Program-made: the position numbers and the translations under genes
Notes under the pieces: model-generated
The model's database searches: none
What the model saw: only the letters and a program-made list of their open reading frames with translations
What the model was told of the DNA's origin: nothing
Source: a virus
Lineage: Duplodnaviria > Caudoviricetes
IMG/VR virus record: IMGVR_UViG_3300042905_002653
Span: 1 to 53,647 of that record
Length of the DNA stretch: 53,647 bases
Direction: 5' to 3' (one strand)
Shown: positions 1 to 17,605 of the stretch, piece after piece
Position numbering within the stretch: the first letter of the stretch is position 1
How the letters are laid out: each line of letters starts with the position of its first letter

Positions 1-220
1 CGGTGGTCGCCGTATCATTCCAGAGGCAGGACGACTGAGCCTCCCAGCACACCTGACAGACGGTGCCGCTGCCGTTGCCGTTGCCGCGCTGGACGCGGCC
101 TTCATTCATGACCAGCGGATCCCGCCCCAGGTTGCCGCCGCGCAATCGCTTCTCAAGCTGCGATCGTGCAACCCAGCCCGCGAGGAATCCGCCAGCGATA
201 CAGGACAGAATGTAGATCAT
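1..220 (-). CDS. Hypothetical membrane-anchored phage protein (3' end outside window)
   Basis: Manual translation MIYILSCIAGGFLAGWVARSQLEKR... stays open to position 1; ATGA overlap with the upstream ORF. Confidence 0.5.
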   Translation of the reverse strand, partial: MIYILSCIAGGFLAGWVARSQLEKRLRGGNLGRDPLVMNEGRVQRGNGNGSGTVCQVCWEAQSSCLWNDTATT

Positions 221-480
221 GGCTGCGGGTACAGTTCGTTGGCGATGGCCAGGAATTCGTGGCGGATCTGCTCTGATCTGTCGTAAGCGTCTGGGCCCAT
301 GCCAGCGTCTCGCATGTATGCAGGTTCTTCCGGCACTACCTGATCCACAGCAGCGCGAAGAGCGGCAGCTAGGCCGGCTTGGCGCGGATCCACAAGGTAT
401 GGATCGCACTCGGCCATTTCAAACGCTTTCCAGACGGCCTGAGCAGTAGGCGACAGTGGCGGCGCAGTGGGGTCAGGCAT
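217..480 (-). CDS. Hypothetical phage protein, LSPxAQAV...LAIAxEL family
   Basis: Paralogous to 1795-2058 and to the C-terminal part of 47782-48696. Confidence 0.75.
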   Translation of the reverse strand: MPDPTAPPLSPTAQAVWKAFEMAECDPYLVDPRQAGLAAALRAAVDQVVPEEPAYMRDAGMGPDAYDRSEQIRHEFLAIANELYPQP

Positions 481-537
481 AGTTGGGTGGTGGGGCAGTG
501 GGGTGAGTGCCGGGCAGGCCCCGGCTGGCCGTGGTGA

Positions 538-828
538 TCAGGCTGTCCTCCGCAGTCGATTAGGCGATGGCGTGCCGTAGCCGTAGCCGTAGCCGTTGCC
601 GTAGCCGTTGCCGTAGCCGTAGCCGTAGCCGTTGCCGTAGCCGTCGCCGTAGCCGTAGCCGTCGCCGTCGCCGTAGCCGTAGCCGTTGCCGTAGCCGTAG
701 CCGTAGCCGTTGCCGTCGCCGTAGCCGTAGCCGTCGCCGTCGCCGTAGCCGTTGCCGTTGCCGTAGCCGTAGCCGTAGCCGTTGCCGTCGCCGTTGCCGT
801 TGCCGACTGGCATCAGTGCGGTAGCCAT
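538..828 (-). CDS. Gly-X (X=Y/N/D) dipeptide-repeat protein
   Basis: GGC-[T/A/G]AC hexamer array at ~574-805; ATG at 828 overlaps the TGA of the upstream gene. Confidence 0.7.
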   Translation of the reverse strand: MATALMPVGNGNGDGNGYGYGYGNGNGYGDGDGYGYGDGNGYGYGYGNGYGYGDGDGYGYGDGYGNGYGYGYGNGYGNGYGYGYGTPSPNRLRRTA

Positions 829-1136
829 CACAGCCCCCATTGGTCATGCACGGGGACGCTGAAGATTTCAGCACCTTCCGGCAGTTCAATCGCAGCGTGC
901 TTGCGAATGTCAGCTTGGCTGGGATCGTCAATCACGGCAGCAAAGCCGCATGATTCCCAGCGAAACACCCATACACAACGATCAAGGCGGATGCGCCCGT
1001 TTTCGCGGGTGACATCTCCGGCATAGATAAATCCGCGGTCAATGACCACAACTGCGCGGTTGCCAGTAGGCCTAGTCTCAGGTACGGAATCGGCGCGAAC
1101 GTAATTGACGCCATTGATTGAAATTGTTTCAGACAT
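828..1136 (-). CDS. Small beta-rich phage protein (DUF6948-like), coupled to the Gly-X repeat gene
   Basis: VVVIDRGFIYAGDV...LDRCVWVFRW resembles phage proteins I recall preceding GxGYG-repeat ORFs; family name not verified. Confidence 0.65.
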   Translation of the reverse strand: MSETISINGVNYVRADSVPETRPTGNRAVVVIDRGFIYAGDVTRENGRIRLDRCVWVFRWESCGFAAVIDDPSQADIRKHAAIELPEGAEIFSVPVHDQWGL

Positions 1137-1198
1137 AAGACTGATGCAGAAGTAAAGTGGTACCGAGATTGGGTGCGGCTCTCGGCGGGCCGCGGTGA

Positions 1199-1387
1199 TC
1201 AGGCCGCCAGCAGGCGGCGGACGGTGGTGCGGCTGCAGCCCAGCCGATCAGCGATCCGCTGCTGCGTCCATCCATCGCGGCGCCAGCGGCGGGCGCGTTG
1301 CTGGCGGCTCTCGGTGGCCCAGAGCAGGACCAGCAGGGGGAGCAGCAGGATCGCCAGCAGGGTGGCAGCAATACAGGTGATGGACAT
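1199..1387 (-). CDS. Small protein with N-terminal TM helix and C-terminal HTH
   Basis: Hydrophobic IAATLLAILLLPLLVLLW then GWTQQRIADRLGCSRTTVRRLL; start uncertain. Confidence 0.65.
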   Translation of the reverse strand: MSITCIAATLLAILLLPLLVLLWATESRQQRARRWRRDGWTQQRIADRLGCSRTTVRRLLAA

Positions 1388-1457
1388 TTCAGATACCGGC
1401 GAGTGCCGGGCGAGGATTGGCATCGGCGCCGCGCTCGGGCTGCCGATGCCCGCAATC

Positions 1458-1628
1458 CTAGCGCAGCAATTCCGAATCTGCAACACCTTCGCCCCTGACC
1501 ACCGTCACCAGCTCAGCCACCACGTTCACCGCCGTTCGCTGGCACGTCTCACACGGCTGTCCACAGCGCCTGTCTGGTGGGAATGGACACGCTGCTAACG
1601 CCAGGCGTTGCACTGGGCTGGTAGTCAT
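1458..1628 (-). CDS. Small Cys-rich hypothetical protein
   Basis: MTTSPVQRLALAACPFPPDRRCGQPCETC; start overlaps upstream stop. Confidence 0.5.
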   Translation of the reverse strand: MTTSPVQRLALAACPFPPDRRCGQPCETCQRTAVNVVAELVTVVRGEGVADSELLR

Positions 1629-1798
1629 CGGGTCAGATAGCGAACAAAAGGAGTAGACCCGGCCCATGCCCCACGGGTGGTAATTGGAAACAGTCCGCAG
1701 GATCCCCATTTCAAGGCGGCACCTATGGAACCGGTATTGCACCAGACCCAACGGCCGATGTAGCCGCCGTTGCTGGTGATCGAGATGAAGTGATTCAT
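1625..1798 (-). CDS. Small hypothetical protein
   Basis: MNHFISITSNGGYIGRWVW...; ATGA overlaps on both sides. Confidence 0.45.
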   Translation of the reverse strand: MNHFISITSNGGYIGRWVWCNTGSIGAALKWGSCGLFPITTRGAWAGSTPFVRYLTR

Positions 1799-2058
1799 GG
1801 TTGTGAGTCCAGTTCGGCGGCGATGGCGAGGATTTCGTGTGTGGCGTAAACCATGCCGTTTAAGAAAATGTGCGCATGGAAAGGTGATTGGCCATAGTCT
1901 TCTGGGGTTGGCTTTATCTGATTCGCAACAGCACGCAGAGCGGCGGCAAGTGGCGCATTGCGACCAGCGGTGCGAGTCTGAGTGCGCTGTGCTGCAACCC
2001 ATGCCTCCAATACAGCCTGAGCAGCAGGCGACAGCGGCGGGCGGTTGGGGGTGGTCAT
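1795..2058 (-). CDS. Hypothetical phage protein, LSPAAQAV family
   Basis: Paralog of 217-480; ATGA coupling. Confidence 0.75.
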   Translation of the reverse strand: MTTPNRPPLSPAAQAVLEAWVAAQRTQTRTAGRNAPLAAALRAVANQIKPTPEDYGQSPFHAHIFLNGMVYATHEILAIAAELDSQP

Positions 2059-2720
2059 GTCTGCACCTCCCCCGCAGGCAGCGGCAGGGCGCGGGCGGGG
2101 AGGCTGACGGTTTGATGCGACAGCCGCTCCGAGGGCTTGCGCAGAATCCAGCCGGCATCAGCGGCGCCATCCTGCGGCGCCCCAAACCAGCAACGTCCGG
2201 CTTCATCACACCACCCATCCCGCTCCCAGGGCCGCTCACTCACCGGCACGGGCGCGGGGCGGCGCTGCTCCAGCAGGTCGGCGGCGCGGGTGAGCATTCC
2301 TGCGTCCGGGTGGTCGCTGCTAGGGCCAAACTCCCCACTGGCATAGGTGCGCAACCACGCCACCGACTCCGTCACCTCCCCCTCGGCGGGCGGGGTGGGC
2401 TGGCGGCCCCAGCGGGCGAGGGCCTGGCGCTGTGCCCAGACAATGATTTCATCGAGGCCCAACTCGTCCCAGCCGTTGGCCGCGTCGGCTTGGGCGTTCC
2501 ACGCTGCCGCCAGCTGATCCAGCCCCAGTAGTTCCGCATCGCCAGGCTCCCCAGCGACGGCGGCCGGTTCCCTGCCCTCGGGCACAGCCGGTCCATCCGC
2601 CGACAATGCAGCGCAGGCGGCATAGAACGAATCGCTCCACGCAGGCACAGGTCCGTTCGGGTCGGATGCAGGCAGTCGGGCAATCAGCCGCTCCATCGCG
2701 GCGCGGATCGGGTCAGTCAT
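2055..2720 (-). CDS. Mosaic hypothetical phage protein
   Basis: N-terminal ~120 aa near-identical to 47782-48696; C-terminal PVPVSERPW...WCDEAGRCWF domain. Confidence 0.75.
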   Translation of the reverse strand: MTDPIRAAMERLIARLPASDPNGPVPAWSDSFYAACAALSADGPAVPEGREPAAVAGEPGDAELLGLDQLAAAWNAQADAANGWDELGLDEIIVWAQRQALARWGRQPTPPAEGEVTESVAWLRTYASGEFGPSSDHPDAGMLTRAADLLEQRRPAPVPVSERPWERDGWCDEAGRCWFGAPQDGAADAGWILRKPSERLSHQTVSLPARALPLPAGEVQT

Positions 2721-2893
2721 GATTCATCTCCAGGAATAAAGAACTCACAAAAAAACGTGATAATCAACGGCGGCTCCAGGAACACCTCACCACCAGCAGC
2801 AGTGCGCCGCTGGCAGGTCTGGCACTCCTCCAGCCAATCCTCAGGGCCATCGCCGAACCCTCGGCAGCGCTCGATGTTGGCAGGGAGGGTCAT
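2717..2893 (-). CDS. Small Cys-containing hypothetical protein (copy at 48693-48869)
   Basis: Manual translation [30 protein letters not shown]...; fills the gap with ATGA overlaps. Confidence 0.6.
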   Translation of the reverse strand: MTLPANIERCRGFGDGPEDWLEECQTCQRRTAAGGEVFLEPPLIITFFCEFFIPGDES

Positions 2894-3348
2894 GTTTCTG
2901 ACTCCGGTGAAGTGGTGGGGGTAACGAGATTGCGCACAGCCCAGTCACGAACAGATCGCCAGCGGCGGCGGCGTGACTGCTCATCGTTGCGCTCGTCGTG
3001 GTACTCGTTTTCGGAAACAACGGCATGAGCAAGGGTTTCGCTGATGTCAAACGGTTCAGCCAGATCGCGCCAATCCACGTCTGGATCAGTCGGATCAAAC
3101 CGCAGCGGCACAGCATCGGCACCTCGTTGAATCCTTACGGCACCCAGGGCGCAGACGCAGCCGGTTTCGGGATCCTCCAACGATCCGGCTGCCAGCTCTG
3201 GCACCGGCAGAGCATCCAAGCCGGCGATCAGATCACGCAGCAGTCGTTGACCACGGCGGCCACGGATGGCGCTTCGCATCGCTCCAGCGGCCTGGCCCTC
3301 CATCCACGGCTCATAGTCGTAGTCGTCGGAATCGTAGTAGCGGCTCAC
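2890..3348 (-). CDS. Hypothetical phage protein
   Basis: [15 protein letters not shown]...VCALGA...END...RWRSVRDW; coupled to neighbours. Confidence 0.75.
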
Positions 3349-3881
3349 AGCCCCACCTCCACACCAGCCGCATCAATCACGCTTTGCAGGTATTTCGTAG
3401 CCTCCTTGTTGGTGTCATAGAAATGCCCAGCCGCCTCCACTCCCAGCAGATACAAACCAGCCATGTGAACGCCAACTGCTGTTTCAAGCACGCAGCCAAC
3501 TTCACCGGCCAGATGAACAGCCCAGCCGCTTATGCAGTGGGTCGTTTCGCAGGTGTGCCAGTCGTTCATGTACAGTGCACCCGGCTGCAGCGCAGCTCGG
3601 GCTACGGCGAGCAATCGAGCGGGAGCGTCTGCGGCAATTTTGAGTCCAATGACGCCGCTGAGGTTGGCGCCGCTGAGGTCGGCGCGCGTGAGGTTGGCGC
3701 CCGTGAGGTAGGCGCGCGTGAGGTTGGCGCCGCTGAGGTCGGCGCCCGTGAGGTCGGCGCCCGTGAGGTTGGCGCGCGTGAGGTAGGCGCTAGGTCTTTG
3801 CAGTCGCTTACCCGTGCTCGAATCACTCAGCCACTGCGCGTGCAGTGCCAGGTCATCGGCTGTGATTGTGTCGGTGCTCAT
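3345..3881 (-). CDS. Pentapeptide-repeat protein with C-terminal WHTCxTTHCIxGW domain
   Basis: A[N/D/Y]L[T/S][G/R] repeats; start chosen by alignment to paralog 52319-52900 (frame is open further upstream). Confidence 0.85.
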
Positions 3882-3976
3882 GGTGCGAAAGGGTGGGTTG
3901 ATGAACAGTTGGCCTTCATGCAGGAATCCGCCGGTGCCCAGGCTGGGCGGATACCAGGTGCCGGCGGTGGTGATGG

Positions 3977-4159
3977 TCATGCCGCCACCCCCTTGAAGCG
4001 GCTCAGGATGTGCTCTCGGTAGTTGAAGAACTGCGCCTCTGCTGGTGGTGCACCAGATGGCAGCCAATCGGCATGGAGATGAGACCATTCCCGCCAACAG
4101 CCCGATGCCCAACACCAGTGGCGGCCATTCATCTGGGCATGGTCAAGGTGGGGGGTCAT
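3977..4159 (-). CDS. Small Trp-rich hypothetical protein (copy at 49953-50135)
   Basis: ATGA coupling to the MTase stop. Confidence 0.5.
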
Positions 4160-5583
4160 GCCGCCACCTCATGCCGCCTGCGCTGCTTCGGCCGGCGGTG
4201 CTGCTCCGGCAGCACCTGGCCCTTGATTCGCGCATACCTCGCGTTCACCGCCGCCCAGACTTCCTCGTCCTTGAACTCGAAGTGCACCGTGCCCTTCTTG
4301 TATGCACGGAACCGGAAGAAGCCCCACTCATACCACTTACCAGGCCAGAACACACCATCAGCAGGCTTGACGGGTTGGCCCACCTCGTCGTACTTCCGGC
4401 CGGTGATGAAACACAGCGCCTTGATCAGGTCCTGGATCTCATCCGCCTGGCTGCCGTAGGTCAGCACCCGTACGTACTCGCCGCACCATGCTGGTTCAGC
4501 CATGTAGGACCGGATGAAGCGCCGGTTGAGCATGTAACCCGAGTTGGTCACCCAGCCCTCCACACCGAACCGGTTCCCCTTGGTGTGCTTCGTCAGGCTG
4601 TCGATCGCCTGCTCTACCGCACGATCCACCCTGGCCTCTTGCGTGCCGGCGACGATCTGCAGCATCCGGTAGATGTTCCGCTCGGTGAACGGGATCCGGC
4701 TCTGTTTCTCCACGAACTGGTTGATGTCCTTGGCCAGCTGCGACGTGGCCAGCTGCGTCGGCAGGAACTCAGCGAAGACGTGTTTCCATGCCGCCTTCTG
4801 CAGATCCTTCCTGAACCGGTTGCGCGTTACCGGTGCACCTTCGACGGTGGCCTGTAAGCCCAGCTCCTGGCCGAAGAACCCATCCAGCACGCTGCGCAGC
4901 CTGGTGCCGGCCTCCACCTGCTCATCGAAAATCCGGCACGCCTCCACATACCGCTGCACGATGTCACTGCTGCGGCGGTACTGGATCAACCCCTCGCCTT
5001 GGGCCTCGATGTCGTCGGGGCCTAGGTAGAAGCCGTCGAACTCATCAGCGCCGCTTACACGTTGGCCAGGCTTGGTGAGCCGCACCAGCCCGACGCTCAC
5101 CTTGGTGGGACGCTCGGCGGTGGTGAAGCACTCGCCCAGATCGTCCAGGCTGCCGTATGCCTCGATCAGCTTGGCCAGCTGTAGCTGCAGCCCACGGAAC
5201 ACGCCTGAGACGGTGTTCCAGTTGCACAGCGCCACGATCTCGCACCCAGGCGGGGCGATCTCCCAAGCGTGCAAAATGTGGGCCTCGTCCGCCGAGAACG
5301 GCGGGTTCATCACGATCAGCTCGATGTGGCTGACCTGATGGGCCTCCACCAGCAGGAAGTCATGCCCCAGGTAGTAACCGCCCCGCAGGCTGGTCAGCAT
5401 GTCCCGCAGCTGCGGTTCCTTCTCGCACCACAGCACCTCCGCCGCGCCACGCTCCAGGCACTCCCGCACCAGGTTCCCTGAGCCGGCGCTGGGCTCCAGC
5501 ACCGTCTTGCCCCGCAGGTCGAGCGGGTCGAGCATCTCGGCCGCTACCTCGGGTGGGGTGGGGTAGAAGTCGGGGTTAAACAT
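4156..5583 (-). CDS. SAM-dependent DNA amino-methyltransferase with DUF4942-like C-terminus
   Basis: DFYPTP, motif I LEPSAGSG, motif IV MNPPF; C-terminal FFRFRAYKKGTVHFEF; start at MFNPDF. Confidence 0.85.
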   Translation of the reverse strand: MFNPDFYPTPPEVAAEMLDPLDLRGKTVLEPSAGSGNLVRECLERGAAEVLWCEKEPQLRDMLTSLRGGYYLGHDFLLVEAHQVSHIELIVMNPPFSADEAHILHAWEIAPPGCEIVALCNWNTVSGVFRGLQLQLAKLIEAYGSLDDLGECFTTAERPTKVSVGLVRLTKPGQRVSGADEFDGFYLGPDDIEAQGEGLIQYRRSSDIVQRYVEACRIFDEQVEAGTRLRSVLDGFFGQELGLQATVEGAPVTRNRFRKDLQKAAWKHVFAEFLPTQLATSQLAKDINQFVEKQSRIPFTERNIYRMLQIVAGTQEARVDRAVEQAIDSLTKHTKGNRFGVEGWVTNSGYMLNRRFIRSYMAEPAWCGEYVRVLTYGSQADEIQDLIKALCFITGRKYDEVGQPVKPADGVFWPGKWYEWGFFRFRAYKKGTVHFEFKDEEVWAAVNARYARIKGQVLPEQHRRPKQRRRHEVAA

Positions 5584-6154
5584 CACTGCCCCCCAACATC
5601 TGAAACGTGATCGCCCACACCCACGGGTTGGCGTCCCATGATCCGGGGCCGTTGATCTGCTCCCAAAGCCGGCGGTAAAGCACGCCGCCCCAGTTATCGG
5701 ACGTTTGTTCAAATGCGTTTGGCGTTACACCTTCCGCCCGTGCATCCCCTTCGCTGATCTCCTGCAGCCGCTGCACGCGAACGTCGGTGATCTCCAGCAG
5801 AATCCGCGATGCGGCTCGGGGCATGAAGATCGACGGGCGCCAGCGTGTGACGACAACATCCCATTCAGCCGAGTGGGGACGCTCAACGAAAACAGATTGC
5901 GCCTCCCCGTGATCAGCGCGATAGACCACCGGCGGGCCTGCTTTGGCTTCGTTCATGGCGAACGTCTCCCGTACCCACAGCCGGTCGCCGGGGCTGCCAT
6001 GCCGGCAGCCATTTTGGCGTGGGAATCGCTGAAGGATCCCGTCGAGATTTGGCATTTCGTCAAACTCCTTTGCAACCCTCCGCGTCTGGGTCTTGCTGCC
6101 GTCGAGGATGGCCCGCACCATCGGGCCGCTGAACAGGATCGGTCGTTCTTTCAT
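5576..6154 (-). CDS. ASCH/PUA-like phage protein
   Basis: MKERPILFSGPMVRAILDGSKTQTRR, GDRLWVRE, WRPSIFMPR, WDANPWVW family motifs. Confidence 0.85.
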   Translation of the reverse strand: MKERPILFSGPMVRAILDGSKTQTRRVAKEFDEMPNLDGILQRFPRQNGCRHGSPGDRLWVRETFAMNEAKAGPPVVYRADHGEAQSVFVERPHSAEWDVVVTRWRPSIFMPRAASRILLEITDVRVQRLQEISEGDARAEGVTPNAFEQTSDNWGGVLYRRLWEQINGPGSWDANPWVWAITFQMLGGSDV

Positions 6155-6312
6155 GGCTGGGCCTCCCCCTCGGCAGGCGGCTCGGGGTGGGCGAGGGCGG
6201 TCAGTCTGTTCAGCTCGGAGACGATCTCTTCAATTCGCATCATTACGCCATCGCGCAGGATGGCGGCACCGTCTGCGCAAACGCCCTCGGTGTAGCGGGT
6301 CAGGTCAGTCAT
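6151..6312 (-). CDS. Small hypothetical protein
   Basis: Manual translation MTDLTRYTEGVCADGAAILRDG...PPAEGEAQP; ATGA overlaps. Confidence 0.55.
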   Translation of the reverse strand: MTDLTRYTEGVCADGAAILRDGVMMRIEEIVSELNRLTALAHPEPPAEGEAQP

Positions 6313-6539
6313 TCGATGGTCTCCGCAGTGCAGCCAGGCCAGCGGTTCTGGCAGTAGCGAATGGCCCTGCCCCGGCTGGGCGCCGGGATGGTGATCGTCA
6401 TGGGTCGCATCGAGGGGATCTTCACCTGCAGGCGATAAGGGCGGGTCGTCTCAGTCGGCAGTGGCCGGCTAAGGCCGGGGCCCAGGGCGGGCTGGTGCTC
6501 GTCGGAGTCGTACAGCGGTCGTGGTTGCCAGGCCATCAT
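6309..6539 (-). CDS. Hypothetical protein
   Basis: Coupled ORF in operon; ends AIRYCQNRWPGCTAETIE. Confidence 0.6.
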   Translation of the reverse strand: MMAWQPRPLYDSDEHQPALGPGLSRPLPTETTRPYRLQVKIPSMRPMTITIPAPSRGRAIRYCQNRWPGCTAETIE

Positions 6540-6706
6540 TCGTGCTCCATATCAAGGACTCGCTCAAGGGCGCGGACATAGCCATCCCAGTAGCGCTCGG
6601 AGTGGTGCTCCCTGCGCTGCGCTTCCCGCAGGCGATTCACCCCGTCGAGGTGAAGTCGAAGGACGGCGGCTCGGGGGACATCGAGCGGGGTTTCTTGCTC
6701 GGGCAT
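6536..6706 (-). CDS. Small hypothetical protein
   Basis: Manual translation MPEQETPLDVPRAAVLRL...YWDGYVRALERVLDMEHE. Confidence 0.55.
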   Translation of the reverse strand: MPEQETPLDVPRAAVLRLHLDGVNRLREAQRREHHSERYWDGYVRALERVLDMEHE

Positions 6707-6876
6707 GGTTCGATGTTGCGGGGGTCGTGGATGTTGGTGGTCTGCTGGCCGGTGCCGCGCAGCAGCAGGGCCATGAGGCTGCGGCTGCGGACGGTCACTA
6801 CCTGGGCCTTGCGCCAGCCGCCCTGGTAGCGGACCCGGACGGGCTGGCCGGGTTCGTAGTCGGCGGTCCAGGCCAT
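6637..6876 (-). CDS. Small SH3/Tudor-like beta-barrel protein
   Basis: YEPGQPVRVRYQGGWRKAQVV pattern; fold is inferred. Confidence 0.5.
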   Translation of the reverse strand: MAWTADYEPGQPVRVRYQGGWRKAQVVTVRSRSLMALLLRGTGQQTTNIHDPRNIEPCPSKKPRSMSPEPPSFDFTSTG

Positions 6877-7091
6877 CGGAACCAGTCCCGCTGGCCAGCG
6901 CCCTGGTCGTATCGGCTCAGGTCGCGGAAGCTCTTGTCGAAGAACTCCGGGTGTTCGGTGAGGAAGCCCGGCGTGGGCAGCACCGGCTCGCCGGGTTGGC
7001 TGGTCTTGTTGAACTGCGAGATCGACCAGAGGCCACCCAGAAGGCCCTTCTCCAGGATTTGCTGCAGCGACTGCGGACTGATCAGGTGCAT
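6798..7091 (-). CDS. Hypothetical protein
   Basis: MHLISPQSLQQILEKGLLGGLWSISQF; part of the operon. Confidence 0.5.
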   Translation of the reverse strand: MHLISPQSLQQILEKGLLGGLWSISQFNKTSQPGEPVLPTPGFLTEHPEFFDKSFRDLSRYDQGAGQRDWFRWPGPPTTNPASPSGSATRAAGARPR

Positions 7092-7594
7092 GGCGCCTCC
7101 TGCTGTTCCTTGAGCTGCCGCAGATAGCCCTGCCACTGCTCATCGGTCAGGCCCTGGGCCTCGGCCGCAGCGGGCCGCAGCGGGGGCTGGCCGCCGCCCA
7201 CCACCTGGTAGGCATCTGGGTTCTGGATGTCCGGCGGTGGCAGCATCGAGCGCGCTTCGGTCGGCAGCAGCGCCAGCTGGGCAGGCTTGAACTGCACGAA
7301 ACCCGGCAGGCCCTCGGCAGGGCCCCAGCTGCGGTTGGCCAGCCCCGCCTCCCGCCGGTACAGCGGGGCCATCAACTCCCGCCAGGTGGGGTAGCGGGTA
7401 AAGCCGGCGGGCAGCGCCTGCACCCACTGCTCTGCGGCCCACATCAGCTGCGGGTCGTTCACCTCGGGGAACTCGGAGGTGAAGCTGTGGAACTTGAGCT
7501 TGCAGACATGGGCGCTCCAGCGGTCGGCCTCCTTGAGCCGGAGGTGGCCCGCAACCATTTCGGCCACGGCCAGGAAGGTCTCGCGGGTCACCAT
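7082..7594 (-). CDS. Hypothetical protein, possible helicase loader (lambda P-like position)
   Basis: Directly follows the initiator-like gene; helical N-terminus ending RYPTWREL; function inferred from context only. Confidence 0.5.
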   Translation of the reverse strand: MVTRETFLAVAEMVAGHLRLKEADRWSAHVCKLKFHSFTSEFPEVNDPQLMWAAEQWVQALPAGFTRYPTWRELMAPLYRREAGLANRSWGPAEGLPGFVQFKPAQLALLPTEARSMLPPPDIQNPDAYQVVGGGQPPLRPAAAEAQGLTDEQWQGYLRQLKEQQEAPCT

Positions 7595-8151
7595 GACGCC
7601 AGCGCCTCCCGCATCGCTGGGTCGGTGGGCGTCGGGCGGGTGCCGGCCGCAGCGGCCAGGTCGGAGCGGTCGAGAAACTCAGGCTTGAGCGCCTGCCAGC
7701 CGTGCTCCATTCCGGCCTTAGCCAGCTGCAGCTGCAGCTCCCTGGGCAGGCGCGCCACACGGTTGACGCTGCTCAGCCAAGCGGCCTCAGTCCAGACGGC
7801 CTTGGCCTTGTGTTTGCTCCAGCGGGACTCGTTCCACCACTGCACCAGCAGCGGCTGCGCTTCCAAGCAGACCTGGCCCAGCAGGTCGCCGCCCAGCTGG
7901 GCCTCAAACCGGGCAGCCTTGGCCACCTTCACCTTGGGGAGCTCCACCGGCGGGGTTGGCACCACCTCCAGCGCAGGCGGCTGGGCCACTTCCACGTAGC
8001 CGCTGGATCGGCCGGCGTAGAGCGCCACCCGCTCGAGGGTGCGGAACTGCTCGCCGCAGCCCTGGCAGATCCTGATGCGCAGGTCGGCCTCGGGCCGGGC
8101 CCGGGTTTCGATTACCCGGCTCTTGTCGTGGCCGCAGTGGGGGCACTTCAT
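7588..8151 (-). CDS. NrdR-like Zn-ribbon fused to a replication-initiator-like C-terminal domain
   Basis: MKCPHCGHDKSRVIETR...RIRICQGCGEQFRTLERV; no ATP-cone; C-terminus WWNESR...WTEAAW...HGWQAL. Confidence 0.65.
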   Translation of the reverse strand: MKCPHCGHDKSRVIETRARPEADLRIRICQGCGEQFRTLERVALYAGRSSGYVEVAQPPALEVVPTPPVELPKVKVAKAARFEAQLGGDLLGQVCLEAQPLLVQWWNESRWSKHKAKAVWTEAAWLSSVNRVARLPRELQLQLAKAGMEHGWQALKPEFLDRSDLAAAAGTRPTPTDPAMREALASW

Positions 8152-8357
8152 TGGCCTGCCTCCTTGGGCGCCCACTCCCCGCACCAGTCATCGCGGAGCA
8201 CCAGCGGCCACACCGCATACTCCCCGCCATTGATGCCAGGCCGTGGTGCCATCCGGCAGCACTTGGCTCTGTTCTGATCCCACCTGTTCATCGGCCGGCT
8301 GTACCTGCAGTTGATGCAGTTCTGGTCAGCGACGGGCGGGTAGCTGTGATTGCTCAT
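8148..8357 (-). CDS. Small Cys-rich (metal-binding) phage protein
   Basis: CINCRY...CCRMAPRP...WCGEW; paralog at 52135-52326. Confidence 0.7.
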   Translation of the reverse strand: MSNHSYPPVADQNCINCRYSRPMNRWDQNRAKCCRMAPRPGINGGEYAVWPLVLRDDWCGEWAPKEAGQ

Positions 8358-8715
8358 CCCAGATCACCTTGAGAAGGATTGATTGTTTGTTCATGGGGGA
8401 TTGCTCCCACTCGGCAACGATTCGCTTGAGCACCGTCACCCGGTCATCGACCCAGAGGATCCCCTTGCCGGCATCCATCACGGCGCCAGCCAGGTTGTCC
8501 AGATCGCTGGTGCCTGGCCCGCGGAACGTGAACTGCACGCACAGCAGCTGCCCTTTCTGCAGCGGCGGGATCGTCCACCACTCGCCGAGAATTGCCCGGC
8601 ACTGCTTCATCCAGCTGGCGTACTTGGTGTCGGTGTAGGCATGGCCGCTGAATCGCGGCCTGGCCTTGGGCTGGAGCGGCAGCGGCAGCTCGAAGTCGGC
8701 AGAGCGCACCGTCAT
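8326..8715 (-). CDS. rusA: RusA-family Holliday junction resolvase
   Basis: PKARPRF, DLDNLAGAVMDA, WVDD motifs. Confidence 0.85.
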   Translation of the reverse strand: MTVRSADFELPLPLQPKARPRFSGHAYTDTKYASWMKQCRAILGEWWTIPPLQKGQLLCVQFTFRGPGTSDLDNLAGAVMDAGKGILWVDDRVTVLKRIVAEWEQSPMNKQSILLKVIWDEQSQLPARR

Positions 8716-9335
8716 CAGAAGGGCACTTCCTCTTCGCTCGGATCACCCCCAAGACCGAAAGGGTCCGGGTCGCCGCTCTCCTGCTCGGGCAGCGCGAAGC
8801 CTTCCTCAGCATCACCAAACGCCGCGGCATGGTTGGGCGGGGTGTACGGCTGATAAGTGATCACCCGCACCGCTTCAAGCTGCAGGCTGATGCCCTTGCC
8901 GCCTTCGGGGCTGTCCCAGGAGTAGTAGGTGAAAGCCACCTTCCCGGTGCTGCCGTTCCCGATCAGCATGTCCACGGGCCATGGCTGACCCTTGGCGTCC
9001 TGGACGATGGGCGGCGGCAAGGGCGTGCCTCGCTTGGTAGCCACGTTGCGGCTGAAACTGAACTTCCACAGATCGGTCTCGTCGCCCTTCTCATCGAGGT
9101 ATGTCTTGACCGGCATGCCGTTCTGGCCGGGTCGGGCCGCAGCGCCGTGCTCGGCGACGAACAGCTGCTTCAGCTTCTTCACGAAGGCCTGGGCCTCGGC
9201 GTCCCCCTTGGGCATCAGCAGCTCGATGCTGTAGGCCTCCTTCTCCGATGCCTTCCCGGCGTTCTGGATACCGGGGGTCAGGATCTTCGCCCACATCAGG
9301 TCGCCCAGTGGGGTGACCATGGTCTCTCGCGCCAT
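8715..9335 (-). CDS. ssb: T7 gp2.5-type single-stranded DNA-binding protein
   Basis: TPLG..WAKI, IGNGSTGKV, GISLQLEAVRVI, acidic tail ending VPF; follows RNAP. Confidence 0.85.
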   Translation of the reverse strand: MARETMVTPLGDLMWAKILTPGIQNAGKASEKEAYSIELLMPKGDAEAQAFVKKLKQLFVAEHGAAARPGQNGMPVKTYLDEKGDETDLWKFSFSRNVATKRGTPLPPPIVQDAKGQPWPVDMLIGNGSTGKVAFTYYSWDSPEGGKGISLQLEAVRVITYQPYTPPNHAAAFGDAEEGFALPEQESGDPDPFGLGGDPSEEEVPF

Positions 9336-9341
9336 GTTGTG

Positions 9342-9355
9342 CTGCATCCATGCAG
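9342..9355. promoter_or_regulatory. CTGCA-N4-TGCAG palindrome before ssb
   Basis: CTGCATCCATGCAG. Confidence 0.7.
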
Positions 9356-9400
9356 AGTTGCAGCAGCACTCTGCCTCCTAGGGGCTTCACCGTCAAGCAC

Positions 9401-11803
9401 CTAGGAGAACAGGTAGGGGTTTTGGCCGATCCGCCCTTCATCCAGGGTGCCCACAATCGGCGGCCTCGGAATCCTTAAACCCTTTGCAGCGCCTTTGATC
9501 TCGGCTGTGATCTCAGCCAGCCAGTCCGGCCGGTACAGCTCGGAGATCCGGTAGCTGAGCGTCGTGCTCAGCCACTCCGCATCGCAGGGCGCAACGGCAA
9601 AACAGTCATGGTTTGGCAGCATCGTGACACCTTGTGCTGCACCCTCGTTGACCATTGCCCACACCAGCGCCGCATCGAAGCTGTGGATCAGGTTGGCCGT
9701 GATCCCCCTTGTGGTCTCCCGGCCGCTGAGCTCACCCGGCACGGGGTCATCGAGCACGGTCTGCCACCGCCGGCTGCCATGCAGCAGCGTCCTCACCTTG
9801 CTGGTGCCGCTCAGCTCCTTGCCCAGCTGGATGGGCAGCCCCATGGGTGACGTCCACCGCAGCGGGGCGTTCGCCTTCATGCACTGGCGGCACGCATCCT
9901 TCAGCCACTTCTGCAGGGCCACCGCGCCACCCAGCCGGGCGCCCACGGCCAGGCCGAACTTCCGCGCCAGGTAGCGGCAGGGAATCAGCCGCTGCTCCTC
10001 CAGCTTGTCCAGCCCCACCATCCCCTCGGCCTCGTCCAACTGGGCCACCAGCTGCTCGGTCAGCCCCAGCAGCTGGGCGCCGTAGACGGTGGACATGACG
10101 GGCAGCTTGGCCATGGCCCTGCTGATGCCACGCTCCAGCCACTCCCGCGCCAGGCGCTGCTCCCGGTAGCTGCCGGCCTCCAGGTCGCTGCGCAGCAGCA
10201 GCGTCACCTCGGCGGCCACCTCCTCGTAGAGATCGTGGCGGGTGGTGCCGATCAGGTTGCACGCCCGGGCAATGGCCTGGTCGCGCACCAGGGCGGCCAT
10301 GATCCCCGGCCCGCTGGTGGTCTGGTCCAGCCGCACCAGCTGCCGGATCGGCCGGGACGGATCCTCCAGCCATAGCTGCATGGCCCGGCAACACTGCAGG
10401 AACTGCCAGGGCTCCTTGGCATCGCGCCACAGGTGGGCCCGCTCTACCGGATCCTCGGCCGCGGCCAGCATCCTCTCCAGTTGATCCCGGCCCCACTGCA
10501 GCCGGTCCACCCAGCTGCCCTTGATCCCCCAGTGGATCGCGGCTGCCTTGAAGATCCAGTCGGCGGCGCGGTCGTCGCAGGGCCGGGCATTGGCCACCAG
10601 CACCTGGGCCTTCTCCCAGTCCGGCCCCTGGTGGGTGGTGGCCCGGTTGGCGGTGTAGACCCTGCCCCGCATGTCCATGCAGTAGCTGAACCAGATCGAC
10701 TGGCCGGCCAGCTGCTCGGCCTGGCGGATTGATGTCTCGATGGTGTTGCGGATGCGGGCGTTGATCCGGCGGTCGTTGTGGCAGGCGTCCAGCTCCCGGT
10801 GGCGCTGGGCCATCGCCTCACGACCCACCAGCTCATGGGGCATGGGCGGCAGCTCAGGCGGCCGGCTGCTCACCGGGAACAGGCCCCGGATCGAGGCATC
10901 CCAGGCGATCCGCTGGTGCTCCACCATCCAGGGGTCGATCTCCAGCTGCTGCGCCTGCAGGGTGTTCACCACCCGCAGGGCAGGGGCCAGCGCCTCGGCG
11001 GTGAGGTAGTCGAGGGGGTGGCCCTGCCGTGAGCGCACCAGCCGCTGAGTGTTGCCCAGGTGGCCGCCGCCGGTCATCCCCGCCCATGGCCTGGGCTGGG
11101 TGAGCATCGGCAGCTTGCGGGCTGGCCTGGGCCGCGGCGGATTGGCGGCGATGACATCGGCCACCGCTGCAGCGGGCGCCAGCTGCAGGCCGCGGCAGCT
11201 CACCGACTTGAAGGTGCGCAGCAGCTGGGTCTCGGTGATGATCAGCTCGAGCAGGAAAGCACCCACCTGGAAGCGCTCCTCGCGGGTCCAGGGGGCGGCC
11301 GTGATCCCCAGCGCCTTGAGGTTCTCGGTTGATGCCAGGGCCTTGCCGTGCCGGCGGCGGCCGATGCGCAGCAGGTCCTGGCCCCTGTCCTCAACCGGCA
11401 GCGTTCTGATCTCGGTCTCGATCGCCTTGCCGATGGCGTTGGCCATCGAGCGATGCGACCCGGGCCGGCTGATCCGGTCCAGCACCACGGTGAGCGCCAC
11501 GGCAGCGATCGAGCGGGGCCCCTTCTCGCCCATGTGGAACAGCAGCCACATGCCGGCGTGATACGGGCCGGCCACCACCTGGCGGGTGATGGCCAGGCCG
11601 ATGGTGTGCTCCAGCGCCAGGGCCACACGCTCGCCGTGGGCGCGGAGCAGGACGCTGCCGTACTCGGTGACGCTCTCGCGCTCCTGCCGCCGGAGCCTGG
11701 CCCGGTCGATCGCGGCGCGGTTGGCAGCGGCCTCCTCGGCCCGCTGTTCCAGATGCCGCTGCCGCTGCTCGGGGGCGGTGGATGAACTGCCGGATGCAGA
11801 CAA
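9401..11803 (-). CDS. T7-like single-subunit RNA polymerase
   Basis: DMRGRVY, motif A LDQTTSG, motif B RAMAKLPVMSTVYG, ANLIHSFDA, motif C HDCF, C-terminus YLFS; catalytic residues present. Confidence 0.95.
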   Translation of the reverse strand: MSASGSSSTAPEQRQRHLEQRAEEAAANRAAIDRARLRRQERESVTEYGSVLLRAHGERVALALEHTIGLAITRQVVAGPYHAGMWLLFHMGEKGPRSIAAVALTVVLDRISRPGSHRSMANAIGKAIETEIRTLPVEDRGQDLLRIGRRRHGKALASTENLKALGITAAPWTREERFQVGAFLLELIITETQLLRTFKSVSCRGLQLAPAAAVADVIAANPPRPRPARKLPMLTQPRPWAGMTGGGHLGNTQRLVRSRQGHPLDYLTAEALAPALRVVNTLQAQQLEIDPWMVEHQRIAWDASIRGLFPVSSRPPELPPMPHELVGREAMAQRHRELDACHNDRRINARIRNTIETSIRQAEQLAGQSIWFSYCMDMRGRVYTANRATTHQGPDWEKAQVLVANARPCDDRAADWIFKAAAIHWGIKGSWVDRLQWGRDQLERMLAAAEDPVERAHLWRDAKEPWQFLQCCRAMQLWLEDPSRPIRQLVRLDQTTSGPGIMAALVRDQAIARACNLIGTTRHDLYEEVAAEVTLLLRSDLEAGSYREQRLAREWLERGISRAMAKLPVMSTVYGAQLLGLTEQLVAQLDEAEGMVGLDKLEEQRLIPCRYLARKFGLAVGARLGGAVALQKWLKDACRQCMKANAPLRWTSPMGLPIQLGKELSGTSKVRTLLHGSRRWQTVLDDPVPGELSGRETTRGITANLIHSFDAALVWAMVNEGAAQGVTMLPNHDCFAVAPCDAEWLSTTLSYRISELYRPDWLAEITAEIKGAAKGLRIPRPPIVGTLDEGRIGQNPYLFS

Positions 11804-11892
11804 GGTGCGGCATCGGTAGCGGGATGCACTTATTACACCCCACCCCCGCAGAGTTGATCAGTGGGCCCCGTACTGCAGTTTCGGCGGGACAT

Positions 11893-11906
11893 CTGCAGGG
11901 ATGCAG
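11893..11906. promoter_or_regulatory. Palindrome between attP and RNAP
   Basis: CTGCAGGGATGCAG. Confidence 0.7.
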
Positions 11907-11920
11907 AACTGCAAAACGGT

Positions 11921-11958
11921 TTATGAGTCCGCTGCTTTCACCAGATAGCTAGACCCCC
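11921..11958 (-). tRNA. 5' half of a CAT-anticodon tRNA (Ile2 or Met); putative attP core, not a full tRNA
   Basis: GGGGGTC-TA-GCTATCTGGTGAAAGC-A-GCGGA-CTCATAA (acceptor strand, D arm, anticodon stem strand, loop), then similarity breaks; lies just downstream of the integrase. Confidence 0.8.
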
Positions 11959-12076
11959 GGGCAGTTGTGGCCTGGGTTTTGGGGTTTTTGGGTGGATGCG
12001 GAGGATGCCGATTTCGGCACCGATCCGCATCCATTTCGGCAGCCACTCTACGGCTGGTGGATACATCCGATTGAGT

Positions 12077-13063
12077 TCAGGCCTCCAGCGCTGCCACGCA
12101 GCTGGCCAGGGCCTCGGTGTGAAGGTGGAGATAGCGCTGCACGCTCTGGAGCGAGGTCCACCCGCCGAAGGTCATCAGCTGATGCAGCGGGATCCCACGG
12201 CTGGCCAGCTTGCTGGCGCAGGTGTGGCGGGTGCAGTGGATGGTCAGCGCCTCGTCGTTGATGCCCAGCTGCTCCTTGGCCTTGCTGAACAGCCAGCGAA
12301 ACTCGCTGTAGCGGTAGGGCCAGACCCGATGGCCCGGGACGGCCGGCAGATGGGGCAGCAGGGCATCCATGGCCCGGCGGGTGAGCGGGATCGAGCGGGC
12401 CCGGTTGGCCTTGGTCTCCCAGAAGGTGACGCGGGCCCGCTCGATGTCCACGTCCTGGCGCTTGAGCTTCTCGATCTCCCCCCAGCGGGCGCAGCTCTCC
12501 AGCAGGAACACGAACAGATCGGCCGCGGCGGGCTGGCCCATGGCCCGGAACGCATCGCAAAAGCCGGTGATCTCCTGCTCGGTGAAGGTGCGGTCCTTGG
12601 TGTTGCGGTTGGTCAGCTGCCGGGGCATGGCCGGGATGGCGCCCAGGTGGCCGTGGAGCACGGCATCGCTGAACATGGCCCGCAGGCAGCTGGTCTTGGC
12701 GTTGACGGTGCCGGGGCGGTTGCCGCGCTGGAGCAGCAGCTGGCGCCACTCGTTCACCATCGGGGCGGTGATGCTGCCCAGCTGGGTGAGCGGGCCAAAG
12801 TGATCCACGGCGGCCTGGGAATAGATCGAGGCGGTGCGCTCGAAGGCCTTGCCGGCCCAGCGGATGCGCAGGGAGAGGTCGCGGGCGTCCTTGATGGTGA
12901 TGCCGTCGGGCTCGCCGACCTGGCGGGCCACCAGCAGCTCCAGCATCTGGCGCTTGGCTTCGAGGGCCTCGGCTTTGGTCTTGCGCTTGGCGGTGCGGCG
13001 GGTGCCGCCCACGGTGACATCGGCGATCCAGCCATCGGCTGTCCGCCGGACTGATCCGGCCAT
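12077..13063 (-). CDS. int: Tyrosine integrase
   Basis: CARWGE (R), TKAN (K), HCTRH, GW, RYLH (Y). Confidence 0.95.
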   Translation of the reverse strand: MAGSVRRTADGWIADVTVGGTRRTAKRKTKAEALEAKRQMLELLVARQVGEPDGITIKDARDLSLRIRWAGKAFERTASIYSQAAVDHFGPLTQLGSITAPMVNEWRQLLLQRGNRPGTVNAKTSCLRAMFSDAVLHGHLGAIPAMPRQLTNRNTKDRTFTEQEITGFCDAFRAMGQPAAADLFVFLLESCARWGEIEKLKRQDVDIERARVTFWETKANRARSIPLTRRAMDALLPHLPAVPGHRVWPYRYSEFRWLFSKAKEQLGINDEALTIHCTRHTCASKLASRGIPLHQLMTFGGWTSLQSVQRYLHLHTEALASCVAALEA

Positions 13064-13093
13064 GGTGGTTCTCGGTGGTGGTGGTGGTGGTGT

Positions 13094-13411
13094 TCAGATG
13101 CGCTGCAGTTGCTGCAGCAGGGTGCGGCCCTTGCTGGAGAGCCGAACCAGGAAGCGCCGGCCCTCGTCCGGGTCGCGCTCCACGGTGAGCAGCCGGTAGC
13201 CGCGGTCGCCGTGGCGGTTGCGATCGGACAGGGCCGACACGCTGCGGGAGACGCTGGAGTTGGTGAGGTTTAGGGCCTCCTCCAGGTGCTCGAAGGTGCA
13301 GTGCTCGGTCGCGGCGACCTCTAAGAACAGTCGCGCTTGATGGAGCGGGAACCTAGTAGGGTCCTGCGCTGCAAACACAGCCAGGGCTTGGGAAAGCGAA
13401 GCCAAATCCAT
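13094..13411 (-). CDS. MarR-like winged-helix regulator
   Basis: LEEALNLTNSSVSRSVSAL...DPDEGRRFLVRLSSKG; upstream of int, as in cyanopodoviruses. Confidence 0.85.
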   Translation of the reverse strand: MDLASLSQALAVFAAQDPTRFPLHQARLFLEVAATEHCTFEHLEEALNLTNSSVSRSVSALSDRNRHGDRGYRLLTVERDPDEGRRFLVRLSSKGRTLLQQLQRI

Positions 13412-13441
13412 GGGCCCATGTGGCAACGGTTACTAGGAGTC

Positions 13442-13455
13442 TGGCACCGATGCAG
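13442..13455. promoter_or_regulatory. Palindrome variant before the MarR-like gene
   Basis: TGGCACCGATGCAG (2 mismatches). Confidence 0.45.
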
Positions 13456-13547
13456 AGCAAGGCGGCGCCGGCCGCCGTGCTCCTCGACCCACAGGTTCAG
13501 CTCCCGCCAGCCGGTAGGGAACGGCAGGGCGATCGACGCGATCAGGG

Positions 13548-13889
13548 CTATCCGCATAGGGCTGATGGTGCAAACGTACTATCTATCAAATCACGGCCGT
13601 TCTGGGTTAGAGCCAGTCGGAACCCTGATTTATGGGGGTGTCTGGTCCGCCCGATCAGCCTCAGGTTGCTGCGTCGGGCGTTGATCCCGGTGGTGCCGCG
13701 GCCGCAGAGGATGAGCACCAGCCGCTCGGCCTGGCTGATGCTCATCCCCATCTGGCGTTGCAGTTCGGGCGCGCTGTCTGCGCCGGATGCGATGCGCAAG
13801 AGCGCCTCAACCGCAGCAGCGCTCAGGTACGGCTGGGCCGCCCGGATCCCGCGGATCATGGCGGCCACATCTGCAGGGGTGGCGCTCAC
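13548..13889 (-). CDS. Second winged-helix DNA-binding protein
   Basis: ELQRQMGMSISQAERLVLIL...FRLALTQNGRDL; GTGA overlap with the upstream ORF. Confidence 0.65.
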   Translation of the reverse strand: MSATPADVAAMIRGIRAAQPYLSAAAVEALLRIASGADSAPELQRQMGMSISQAERLVLILCGRGTTGINARRSNLRLIGRTRHPHKSGFRLALTQNGRDLIDSTFAPSALCG

Positions 13890-14489: not shown

Positions 14490-14497
14490 GGTGGTGA

Positions 14498-14656: not shown

Positions 14657-14744
14657 GGTGTTCTCGTTGGTGGTGATGGTGGTGGTGTGCTGGCGTGAGA
14701 CCAGCAGGGAGCGGACGGATCCGCTCCGGGCTGGTGTCGGGTGA

Positions 14745-14948: not shown

Positions 14949-14951
14949 GGC

Positions 14952-17603: not shown

Positions 17604-17605
17604 CG

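Follow-up and report, generated by a model that had tools for sequence, protein, structure and literature searches.

How does a T7-like phage copy its genome when it encodes neither a DNA polymerase nor a primase-helicase of its own? The question is raised by the DNA-metabolism module in IMG/VR record IMGVR_UViG_3300042905_002653, which was analysed whole (53,647 bp; hereafter the window). An earlier note, made from the letters alone, had described this module as one in which the T7 replication genes were replaced by lambdoid-style genes, and had pictured a temperate lineage that recruits the host replisome. The window contains a new, fairly divergent member of the S-SRP02-like ("clade S") T7-like podoviruses of freshwater picocyanobacteria. 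On balance we favour an account in which a clade S module without replisome genes relies on a zinc-ribbon protein and an adjacent 170-aa protein to hand the host replisome to the phage, which in this contig is flanked by two copies of a cassette that is common with an unrelated phage.

Homologous loci were collected by scanning IMG/VR with an alignment of the 170-aa protein (101 relatives, 80 loci kept) and from GTDB genomes (7), giving 87 loci in total. The module comprises the following genes and open reading frames (ORFs), in the order in which they are read.

9401-11803, minus strand: T7-type single-subunit RNA polymerase (RNAP), 800 aa, intact (PF00940 E 1.5e-47; PF14700 E 1.3e-13)
8715-9347, minus strand: gp2.5-like single-stranded DNA-binding (SSB) and annealing protein (phrog_112 E 3.2e-24; Pfam SBB_T7 23.7 bits, below the cut-off of 27)
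8326-8715, minus strand: RusA Holliday-junction resolvase, in the slot of T7 gp3 (PF05866 31.9 bits, cut-off 22.8; phrog_140 E 2.3e-13)
8148-8357, minus strand: 69-aa ORF without a match in Pfam or in Synechococcus phage S-SRP02
7588-8151, minus strand: 187-aa zinc-ribbon protein (PF22811 E ~6e-10 to 7e-10)
7082-7594, minus strand: 170-aa orphan protein; no Pfam, PHROG or NCBIfam family matched
6637-7143, minus strand: 168-aa conserved ORF, which probably begins further downstream; no Pfam, PHROG, NCBIfam or PDB match, homologue in 78/87 loci
6536-6706, 6309-6539 and 6151-6312, minus strand: three small ORFs, within 6151-6706
5576-6154, minus strand: phrog_874 protein, 192 aa, which opens an accessory cassette (phrog_874 E 1.6e-70; no Pfam, NCBIfam or PDB match)
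47782-48696, minus strand: 304-aa ORF, which closes the accessory cassette; no family or PDB match; repeat families D7 and D13
47006-47785, minus strand: gp6-like 5'-3' exonuclease / flap endonuclease, 259 aa (PF02739 47.3 bits, cut-off 34.3)

The SSB, RusA, zinc-ribbon and 170-aa genes and the small ORFs down to 5578 all lie on the minus strand where the earlier note had placed them, and the RNAP is intact, as it had stated. Its exonuclease at the 5578 end was misplaced: that position belongs to the phrog_874 gene, and the gp6-like exonuclease at 47006-47785 is the true end of the DNA-metabolism module. Of the 889 positions of the Pol I model this protein matches 5-204 alone, that is, the exonuclease N-domain without a polymerase domain. 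The further claim that nothing but RusA, the zinc-ribbon gene, a loader-like gene and small ORFs preceded the exonuclease was right in that no gp4 or gp5 gene intervenes, but a cassette of ~4.5 kb does. The phage keeps the T7-type transcription, virion and packaging genes together with a recombination set, namely the gp2.5-like SSB/annealase, RusA for gp3 and the gp6-like exonuclease. It has the phage single-subunit RNAP and the virion and packaging genes of a T7-like phage and is without gp4 and gp5.

The whole record was searched in six frames with profiles for DNA_pol_A (PF00476) and DnaB_C (PF03796), and with a second set covering Toprim_2, Toprim_3, Zn_Ribbon_Prim, Prim-Pol, DNA_pol_B and AAA_25 (PF13155, PF13362, PF08273, PF09250, PF00136, PF13481). 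None gave a match at E<=10, while the same search of the T7-like cyanophage S-CBP42, the positive control, returned PF00476 at E 9.5e-36 and PF03796 at E 1.5e-24. Pfam scans of 50 window ORFs revealed no polymerase, primase or helicase domain (PHROGs were run on 20 ORFs and NCBIfam on 10). The lack of family A polymerase, TOPRIM and DnaB that had been read from the letters is thus confirmed, and this phage encodes neither DNA polymerase nor primase-helicase. The same genes are missing from its kin: at E<=1, neither DNA_pol_A nor DnaB_C was found in any of 19 whole records, made up of 18 long IMG/VR loci and the cultured S-SRP02, of which 16 are at least 90% complete and three have terminal repeats. 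Since 0/19 relatives carry them, the absence is a trait of the lineage and not a defect or misassembly.

This trait is not new. Members of clades C, S and T and of groups AG-1.2 to AG-1.4 and AG-11 have been published without a DNA polymerase gene (PMC12695635, PMC9860041, PMC12361551), and the statement that gp4 and gp5 are near-universal is accordingly out of date. The Nature 2025 paper on NblA (PMC12695635) defines clade C by the absence of DNA polymerase and presents clade S as being without DNA polymerase and primase-helicase. The passages of the S-SRP02 paper that we drew upon (PMC8790148) are silent on the missing polymerase and list the 246-aa exonuclease as "DNA polymerase I". A T7-like phage without these two enzymes is thus already published for its clade, and the window is one more member. 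By elimination, dependence on host polymerases is likely, and for clade C, Cai et al. (PMC9860041) proposed that host Pol I or Pol III is employed.

A polymerase of unfamiliar fold among the unannotated ORFs could escape profile searches, and this counts against a module truly free of replisome genes. Under this alternative the phage would have its own polymerase or primase, too divergent in fold for current profiles, among the ORFs without known function; examples are 6637-7143, 47782-48696 and three proteins of 957-1153 aa. Many ORFs indeed match no family, and Cai et al. voice the same caveat for clade C (PMC9860041). Searches with phmmer of 6637-7143, 5576-6154 and 47782-48696 against PDB gave nothing at E<=0.1. 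We nevertheless judge it very improbable. The large ORFs occupy the position of internal virion proteins and match such PHROGs (phrog_6651; phrog_90, endolysin-type, E 1.5e-26; phrog_21, E 2.9e-44). In 53 relatives no more than 4.9-8.7 kb (median 5.8 kb) separates the RNAP end from the portal start; known or conserved genes fill ~4 kb of this by a rough sum, and the accessory ORFs are scarce among relatives (phrog_874 in 1/87 loci, the 304-aa ORF in 4/87).

If the polymerases come from the host, the genes that remain in the slot of gp4 deserve attention. The order int-RNAP-SSB-RusA-Zn-ribbon-170aa-exo-portal is conserved in 87/87 loci, with a gp2.5-like SSB homologue found in 75 of them and a distance of 0.6-3.0 kb between the 170-aa gene and the exonuclease gene. 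Both the zinc-ribbon and the 170-aa gene are present in 87/87 loci, and in 86 the former lies directly 5' of, and adjacent to, the latter; this count includes the close relative L082, where the two overlap by 3 nt, and the remaining locus, L034, has a gap of 665 nt. In the window the last 7 nt of the zinc-ribbon gene are also the first 7 nt of the 170-aa gene.

The zinc-ribbon protein has 88 homologues of ~190 aa. Its NrdR-type zinc ribbon occupies residues 1-45 and is joined by a variable linker to a conserved, all-helical C-domain (95-187). An alignment of 48 homologues, all of which match PF22811, showed four invariant or near-invariant cysteines and, in the C-domain, the motif WWNESRxSKH...GVEHGWQALK. 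The NrdR zinc ribbon is the DNA-binding part of that repressor. Profile comparison with PDB matched NrdR (7p37_A, E 2.4e-9) over positions 1-74 only, and structural alignment of the model (pLDDT 80) with NrdR 9fzf_A gave Z 5.0 and an rmsd of 1.7 over 43 residues. The protein was rejected as a full NrdR: it has the N-terminal ribbon without the C-terminal ATP-cone, and TIGR00244 scored 26.5 bits against a cut-off of 124.65, over residues 1-44 only. No structural match above Z 4.2 was obtained for the C-domain, and no NrdR chain was matched by it. Atlas look-alikes of the C-domain were the C-terminal parts of HTH_36 and Lin1244_N phage proteins (TM 0.52-0.59), which are presumably replication proteins, and its Atlas features gave Phg_2220_C at 0.90; we treat both as leads. 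The protein is a candidate origin-binding initiator, the competing reading being a transcription factor.

For the 170-aa protein 227 homologues were found, none with a Pfam domain. The family has 44 cluster representatives among 1.84 billion proteins, none longer than 295 aa and none seen as a fusion. In an exhaustive structural alignment of the model (pLDDT 87) the top match was G39P of phage SPP1, which both loads and inhibits a helicase (1no1_A; Z 6.0, rmsd 2.4); all of the target (67/67 residues) was placed on model residues 2-76. The runner-up stood at Z 4.7 and DnaD-like domains at Z 3.4-3.7. In BFVD the sole strong match was the homologue in MedDCM-OCT-S38-C3, an uncultured phage, with "Replisome organizer" and "Replicative helicase inhibitor G39P, N-terminal" among the weak rows (E 0.1-6). 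By Atlas features the protein's score was 0.93 to a cluster with PF11417 in 34% of its members. A predicted complex of the zinc-ribbon C-domain (85-187) with the 170-aa protein scored 0.25 (mark 0.32). With a weak fold match of its modelled N-domain, the protein may be regarded as a candidate helicase loader. The earlier note had called the two genes Zn-ribbon/initiator-like and loader-like: the folds agree with a zinc ribbon (NrdR Z 5.0) and with a loader-like protein (G39P Z 6.0), and the initiator and loader roles stay conditional.

The slot itself has been filled differently in related phages. MedDCM-OCT-S38-C3 (Stopalavirus) and MedDCM-OCT-S37-C6 (Oinezvirus), of the uncultured Mediterranean group G9, have RNAPs 35-38% identical to that of the window and the same overall gene order. 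Between Rus and exonuclease, S38-C3 carries an "NrdR" gene and a 151-aa gene, as in the window, whereas S37-C6 (AP013546.1, L128; RNAP 38% identical) carries in this position (18729-20150) a 473-aa Toprim/DnaB_C protein (E 2.1e-19). Comparison of the two slots indicates that the pair replaces the gp4-like gene position for position, and the Toprim/DnaB_C protein in S37-C6 that the Rus-exonuclease slot is an exchangeable replication cassette in this phage group. S37-C6, which keeps its primase-helicase, is also without family A polymerase.

From position, conservation and a weak fold match, we infer, reasonably in our opinion, that the zinc-ribbon and 170-aa proteins act as initiator plus loader. 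In such a scheme the NrdR-type zinc-ribbon protein would bind phage DNA at a putative origin, the translationally coupled 170-aa protein would deliver host DnaB through its G39P-like N-domain, and host DnaG and Pol III would then replicate the phage genome. The gp2.5-like protein, exonuclease and RusA may support recombination-dependent replication and the processing of concatemers for the T7-type terminase. Recruitment of the host replisome, as the earlier note had proposed, is therefore plausible: reliance on the host is likely by elimination, and the initiator/loader mechanism is the conditional part. More tentatively, and with rather less confidence than in the general account, we suggest that one T7-like branch has swapped gp4 for a zinc-ribbon origin binder and an orphan of G39P-like fold that captures host DnaB, keeping its own RNAP while relying fully on the cyanobacterial replisome.

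Several results weigh against this proposal. The G39P match, at Z 6.0, is below the aligner's own level for a secure match. Foldseek searches of PDB, which the earlier note had suggested for 7588-8151 and 7082-7594, returned the NrdR ribbon alone for the former (E ~3e-3) and nothing at E<=0.001 for the 170-aa model. PF11417 was matched at E<=10 by 0/38 members of the 170-aa family, and 0/10 remote homologues matched Pfam; hhalign comparison with SPP1 G39P gave a probability of 0.1%, that is, no sequence link. Besides the NrdR-type ribbon, 36/48 zinc-ribbon family members match the zinc finger of Ogr/Delta, which are phage transcription activators, and therefore a purely regulatory role fits this protein equally well.

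These points favour a different account, in which the host replisome is used without any phage initiator or loader, the zinc-ribbon protein being a transcription regulator and the 170-aa protein having some other role. Replication would then start from phage-RNAP transcripts or R-loops, or the gp2.5-like protein, exonuclease and RusA would supply recombination intermediates for it to start from, and the host restart primosome would load DnaB. Priming by transcripts or R-loops is familiar from the T7 primary origin, mitochondrial DNA and ColE1, and the phage does encode an RNAP as well as the three recombination proteins. The 170-aa family shows no sequence link to any loader, and no conserved iteron or origin was found. 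Against this account stand the exact coincidence of the pair with the slot of its cousin's primase-helicase and its invariance in 87/87 loci, G39P as the single best structural match with the whole target covered, and the HTH_36 or Lin1244_N phage proteins that resemble the C-domain. We consider replication without a phage initiator possible but rather unlikely.

A search for short repeats in 5578-18100 located one iteron-like array (3 x 31 nt, 3.2 copies; 16592-16689), 90 nt from an AT-rich island (16421-16500; 42% GC in a genome of ~65% GC). Both elements lie between the ArdC-like gene and the plus-strand block, where the DNA seems to be non-coding. Neither S-SRP02 nor L082 conserves the array, and it was rejected as evidence of an origin, which further weakens the case for an origin-binding initiator. 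Possible identities of 16421-16689 are an origin, a genome end and a promoter region.

The initiator-plus-loader proposal resembles two known systems. In Bacillus siphovirus SPP1 the replication module comprises the origin binder G38P, loader G39P and helicase G40P, and the window likewise has two adjacent small genes, for a DNA binder and then a protein with a G39P-like N-domain. The likeness does not extend to sequence (hhalign 0.1% for the 170-aa protein with G39P, 0.2% for the zinc-ribbon protein with G38P) or to a phage helicase gene after the pair. G38P is annotated as DnaD-like in the SPP1 record, whereas the DNA binder of the window is a zinc ribbon without a G38P match. The 170-aa protein is thus no member of the G39P-type loaders (PF11417) by sequence, and any resemblance to them would lie in the fold of the N-domain and the weak BFVD rows. 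With phage lambda, where O and P serve as initiator and loader and the host gives helicase, primase and Pol III, the likeness is one of proposed logic only, functional at most. The lambdoid replication claimed in the earlier note survives in RusA, which is typical of lambdoid phages and here scores above its Pfam cut-off; no Pfam-A match to lambda O, P or any initiator or loader family was found in the ORFs of 5576-9347 or in the 38 + 48 members of the two families. Across those members and the 10 remote homologues, the Pfam families that were matched were all zinc ribbons. The logic of SPP1, by which a DnaB-type helicase is redirected to a phage origin, is also cited by Cai et al. (PMC9860041). 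That paper describes clade C phages (MPP-C; Cai et al., ISME J 2023) as T7-like cyanophages without a DNA polymerase gene; they keep primase-helicase as a core gene, unlike the window and clade S.

The closest phage record is S-SRP02 (MW822601.1), whose host is a freshwater Synechococcus (sp. SR-C1) and which is matched collinearly by 34 of 69 window ORFs at 35-75% amino acid identity. Identity is 62% for TerL, 64% for the nozzle, 62% for the capsid and 54% for the portal protein; 74% for RusA (p027), 69% for the exonuclease (p034), 64% for the integrase (p021) and 54% for the MarR-like protein (p020). S-SRP02 has the order MarR-int-RNAP-SSB-RusA-'NrdR'-p029-...-exonuclease-portal, with TerL and a C39-like peptidase encoded on the other strand, and neither DNA polymerase nor primase-helicase; its p028 is the zinc-ribbon protein and its p029 the homologue of 7082-7594. 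The window differs in its RNAP, only 46% identical, and in its ArdC-like gene and the ~4.5-kb methyltransferase cassette before the exonuclease; the "DNA pol III beta" of S-SRP02 (p014) is matched by no window ORF. Four of the seven GTDB contigs of the lineage are titled Cyanobium or Prochlorococcaceae. The other three (L085, L086 and L088) are labelled Klebsiella, Sphingomonadaceae and Lysobacterales; two have the length of a phage genome (40.6 and 42.5 kb) and one is of 23.2 kb, and the labels are probably binning errors and not host signals. Among metagenomes of lakes or other fresh waters, 20 runs belonging to 19 studies contained 82% or more of the words sampled from window 1-8000.

In contig coordinates the exonuclease gene and the phrog_874 gene are 41 kb apart. 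This separation arises because the phage is permuted around an exact direct repeat of 3,212 bp (100% identical, offset 45,976 bp), and the contig can be divided as follows.

1-2365: left flank Y, second phage ("beta"), as in the X-R-Y arrangement of contig L110
2366-5577: repeat copy R1, with a DUF4942 N6-methyltransferase (4156-5583), a pentapeptide-repeat protein (3345-4115), ORFs 2890-3348 and 2717-2893, and the 5' end of the next gene
48342-51553: repeat copy R2, in the second-phage context
51554-53647: right flank X, second phage, with a zinc-finger ORF, a pentapeptide-repeat protein and an OB-fold SSB (53175-53561; PF00436 E 9e-28)

In L082, a close relative (83-96% nucleotide identity) whose homology ends at ~6300, the sequence runs from window position 6300 straight into 47751, where the exonuclease gene begins, and S-SRP02 is arranged in the same way. 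It follows that the phage is permuted in the contig, with a unit of 42,764 + 3,212 = 45,976 bp. Relative to its kin it carries an insertion of ~4.5 kb (6312-5578 + repeat + 48341-47786) in the variable stretch that precedes the exonuclease; the phrog_874 gene, the DUF4942 methyltransferase, the pentapeptide-repeat protein and others separate the small ORFs from that gene, the methyltransferase being found in 0/87 relatives' loci. The methyltransferase has a proper start in both contexts, at ATG 5583 in the T7-like phage, where it overlaps the phrog_874 stop, and at ATG 51565 in the second phage.

Sequence outside the two repeat copies is unrelated. A circular-genome wrap-around was rejected, since the repetition is confined to 2366-5577 and the outer flanks bear no relation to the phage. 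X-R-Y is contiguous, at 98.6-99% identity and without the T7-like phage, in an independent IMG/VR contig (L110, IMGVR_UViG_3300044733_003359); X-R is carried by L089, L090, L110, L123 and L124. Upstream of X (L110:1-8000) are genes for a primase (Zn_Ribbon_Prim + Toprim_3), an SF2 helicase, CoiA-like and VRR-NUC proteins and a YqaJ exonuclease, followed by the classical SSB. The contiguity of X-R-Y and the separate set of replication genes show that the flanks belong to a different phage. Logan unitigs from three lake metagenomes end exactly at 2366 and 5577, and their word depths, with phage A the T7-like phage, were as follows.

Run X1: flank Y ~45, repeat R 59-75, phage A 34 (Y:A 1.3)
Run X2: flank Y ~36, repeat R 48-60, phage A 49.5 (Y:A 0.73)
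Run X3: flank Y ~15, repeat R 12-21, phage A 7.2 (Y:A 2.1)

The depth of the repeat is roughly that of the two flanks summed, and the depths of flank Y and phage A vary independently. Probably, then, these are two separate genomes with a common cassette, and the contig is one assembly path through a shared node; a true cointegrate formed by homologous recombination is less likely. In run X21, 30 raw reads were placed, almost all of them on the low-complexity repeat at 535-801.

An assembly of this kind invites the suspicion that the missing gp4 and gp5 are an artefact, lost from a defective element, by a one-off deletion or through misassembly. The contig is structurally odd, with its 3.2-kb exact repeat and foreign flanks, and the second phage carries a primase and a helicase just beyond flank X. 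The whole records of the 19 relatives, among them a plaque-forming isolate and the three with terminal repeats, are equally without these genes. Moreover, the small ORFs abut the exonuclease directly in L082 and S-SRP02, so that the repeat marks an insertion and not a deletion. A one-off deletion or misassembly is thus refuted by these records and the L082 junction, and an artefact of any sort is hardly credible.

The stretch past the small ORFs looks like a hot spot for accessory genes. Metagenome unitigs break also at ~6090-6128, near the start of the phrog_874 gene, and hence co-occurring phage variants seem to differ past the small ORFs. The 304-aa ORF corresponds to second-phage ORFs of 221 aa (2055-2720) and 87 aa (1795-2058), the first 118 codons being identical and the remainder ~72% identical; nucleotide identity between 2012-2253 and 47987-48214 is 72.6%. 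A third ORF, at 217-480, has the same C-terminal end. Within a left-flank ORF lies a 12-nt tandem repeat of ~17 or more copies (537-848). Its bin has a word depth of 700-1400 in lake metagenomes, against ~50 nearby, which suggests that the repeat is common to many other sequences.

The remaining genes to which the argument refers are listed here.

14952-15890, minus strand: ArdC-like anti-restriction gene (ArdcN and zincin peptidase domains; phrog_7245 E 3e-68)
13094-13426, minus strand: MarR-like regulator, 5' of the RNAP gene (MarR_2 E 1.8e-4, below cut-off)
12077-13063, minus strand: tyrosine integrase, 5' of the RNAP gene (PF00589 E 1.9e-19)
18069-19832, plus strand: TerL
44398-46026, minus strand: T7-type portal gene, separate from the phrog_21 match

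The integrase and MarR-like genes are the basis for a temperate lifestyle, which the earlier note had asserted and which is only suggested by our data. The integrase-RNAP junction is unbroken in the contig, and S-SRP02 and L082 have it unbroken too. No integrated copy was found, all seven GTDB genome-contig matches being on contigs of at most 42.5 kb, and in place of the host DNA that would flank a prophage at an att site beside the integrase, the flanks are those of another phage. An att search near int found no tRNA in the record, no Rfam family at gathering score in the window and none at E<=1 in 11700-13600; in the cousin S31-C1 a tRNA overlaps the 3' end of the int gene. An integrase homologue is absent from 11/50 relatives with at least 2 kb upstream of RNAP, which keep the same module and pair, and the integrase-less L055, L067 and L069 are among the 19 whole records without polymerase and helicase.

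The record as a whole is classed as linear with a CheckV completeness of 100%. Nearly all genes are on the minus strand, in the order ArdC-like, MarR-like, tyrosine integrase, RNAP, gp2.5-like SSB and RusA; then the 69-aa ORF, zinc-ribbon, 170-aa and 168-aa genes, three small ORFs, the phrog_874 gene and repeat copy R1. Below R2 follow the 304-aa ORF, the gp6-like exonuclease, two small ORFs and the genes for portal, scaffold, capsid, tail tube A and nozzle, and after the nozzle internal proteins of 269, 957, 1153 and 1130 aa and the tail fibre. The T7-type virion and packaging genes (portal, capsid, tail tube A, nozzle, tail-fibre N-domain and TerL) matched PF12236, PF21703, PF17212, PF25675 (E 4e-221), PF03906 and PF22530. 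In the 1153-aa internal protein (31443-34904, minus strand), residues 592-913 match phrog_21 ("portal protein", E 2.9e-44) and show a weaker match to a ParB-like PHROG. TerL, the C39-like peptidase and their neighbours form a plus-strand block (17167-21837), which is unusual for T7-like phages but has the same arrangement in S-SRP02. A small minus-strand ORF (19822-20118) converges on TerL and is homologous to S-SRP02 p011, which was used as TerS in the 2025 paper. The ArdC-like gene, in the presumed early region, has no S-SRP02 match. Exactly between the RNAP stop and the SSB start is a 16-nt inverted repeat (9375-9407; 88% complementary, 1-nt loop), which may be a terminator or an RNA-processing hairpin.

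Two cyanophages that co-occur but are unrelated carry a 3.2-kb cassette at 100% identity, which clearly exemplifies very recent gene exchange, and the fact that an IMG/VR record scored as 100% complete exceeds one genome is a warning. A literature search found no paper joining cyanopodovirus and helicase loader, or Autographiviridae, NrdR and primase, and the literature on polymerase-less T7-like cyanophages, in the portions consulted, says only that they "may rely on host genes". For the replication mode of this clade the conserved pair in the gp4 slot is a concrete candidate. If gp4 was indeed swapped for this cassette, the 170-aa protein would found a new family of helicase loaders, and loading of host DnaB by the pair, if it occurs, would reveal a way of trading the T7 replisome module for one that depends on the host.

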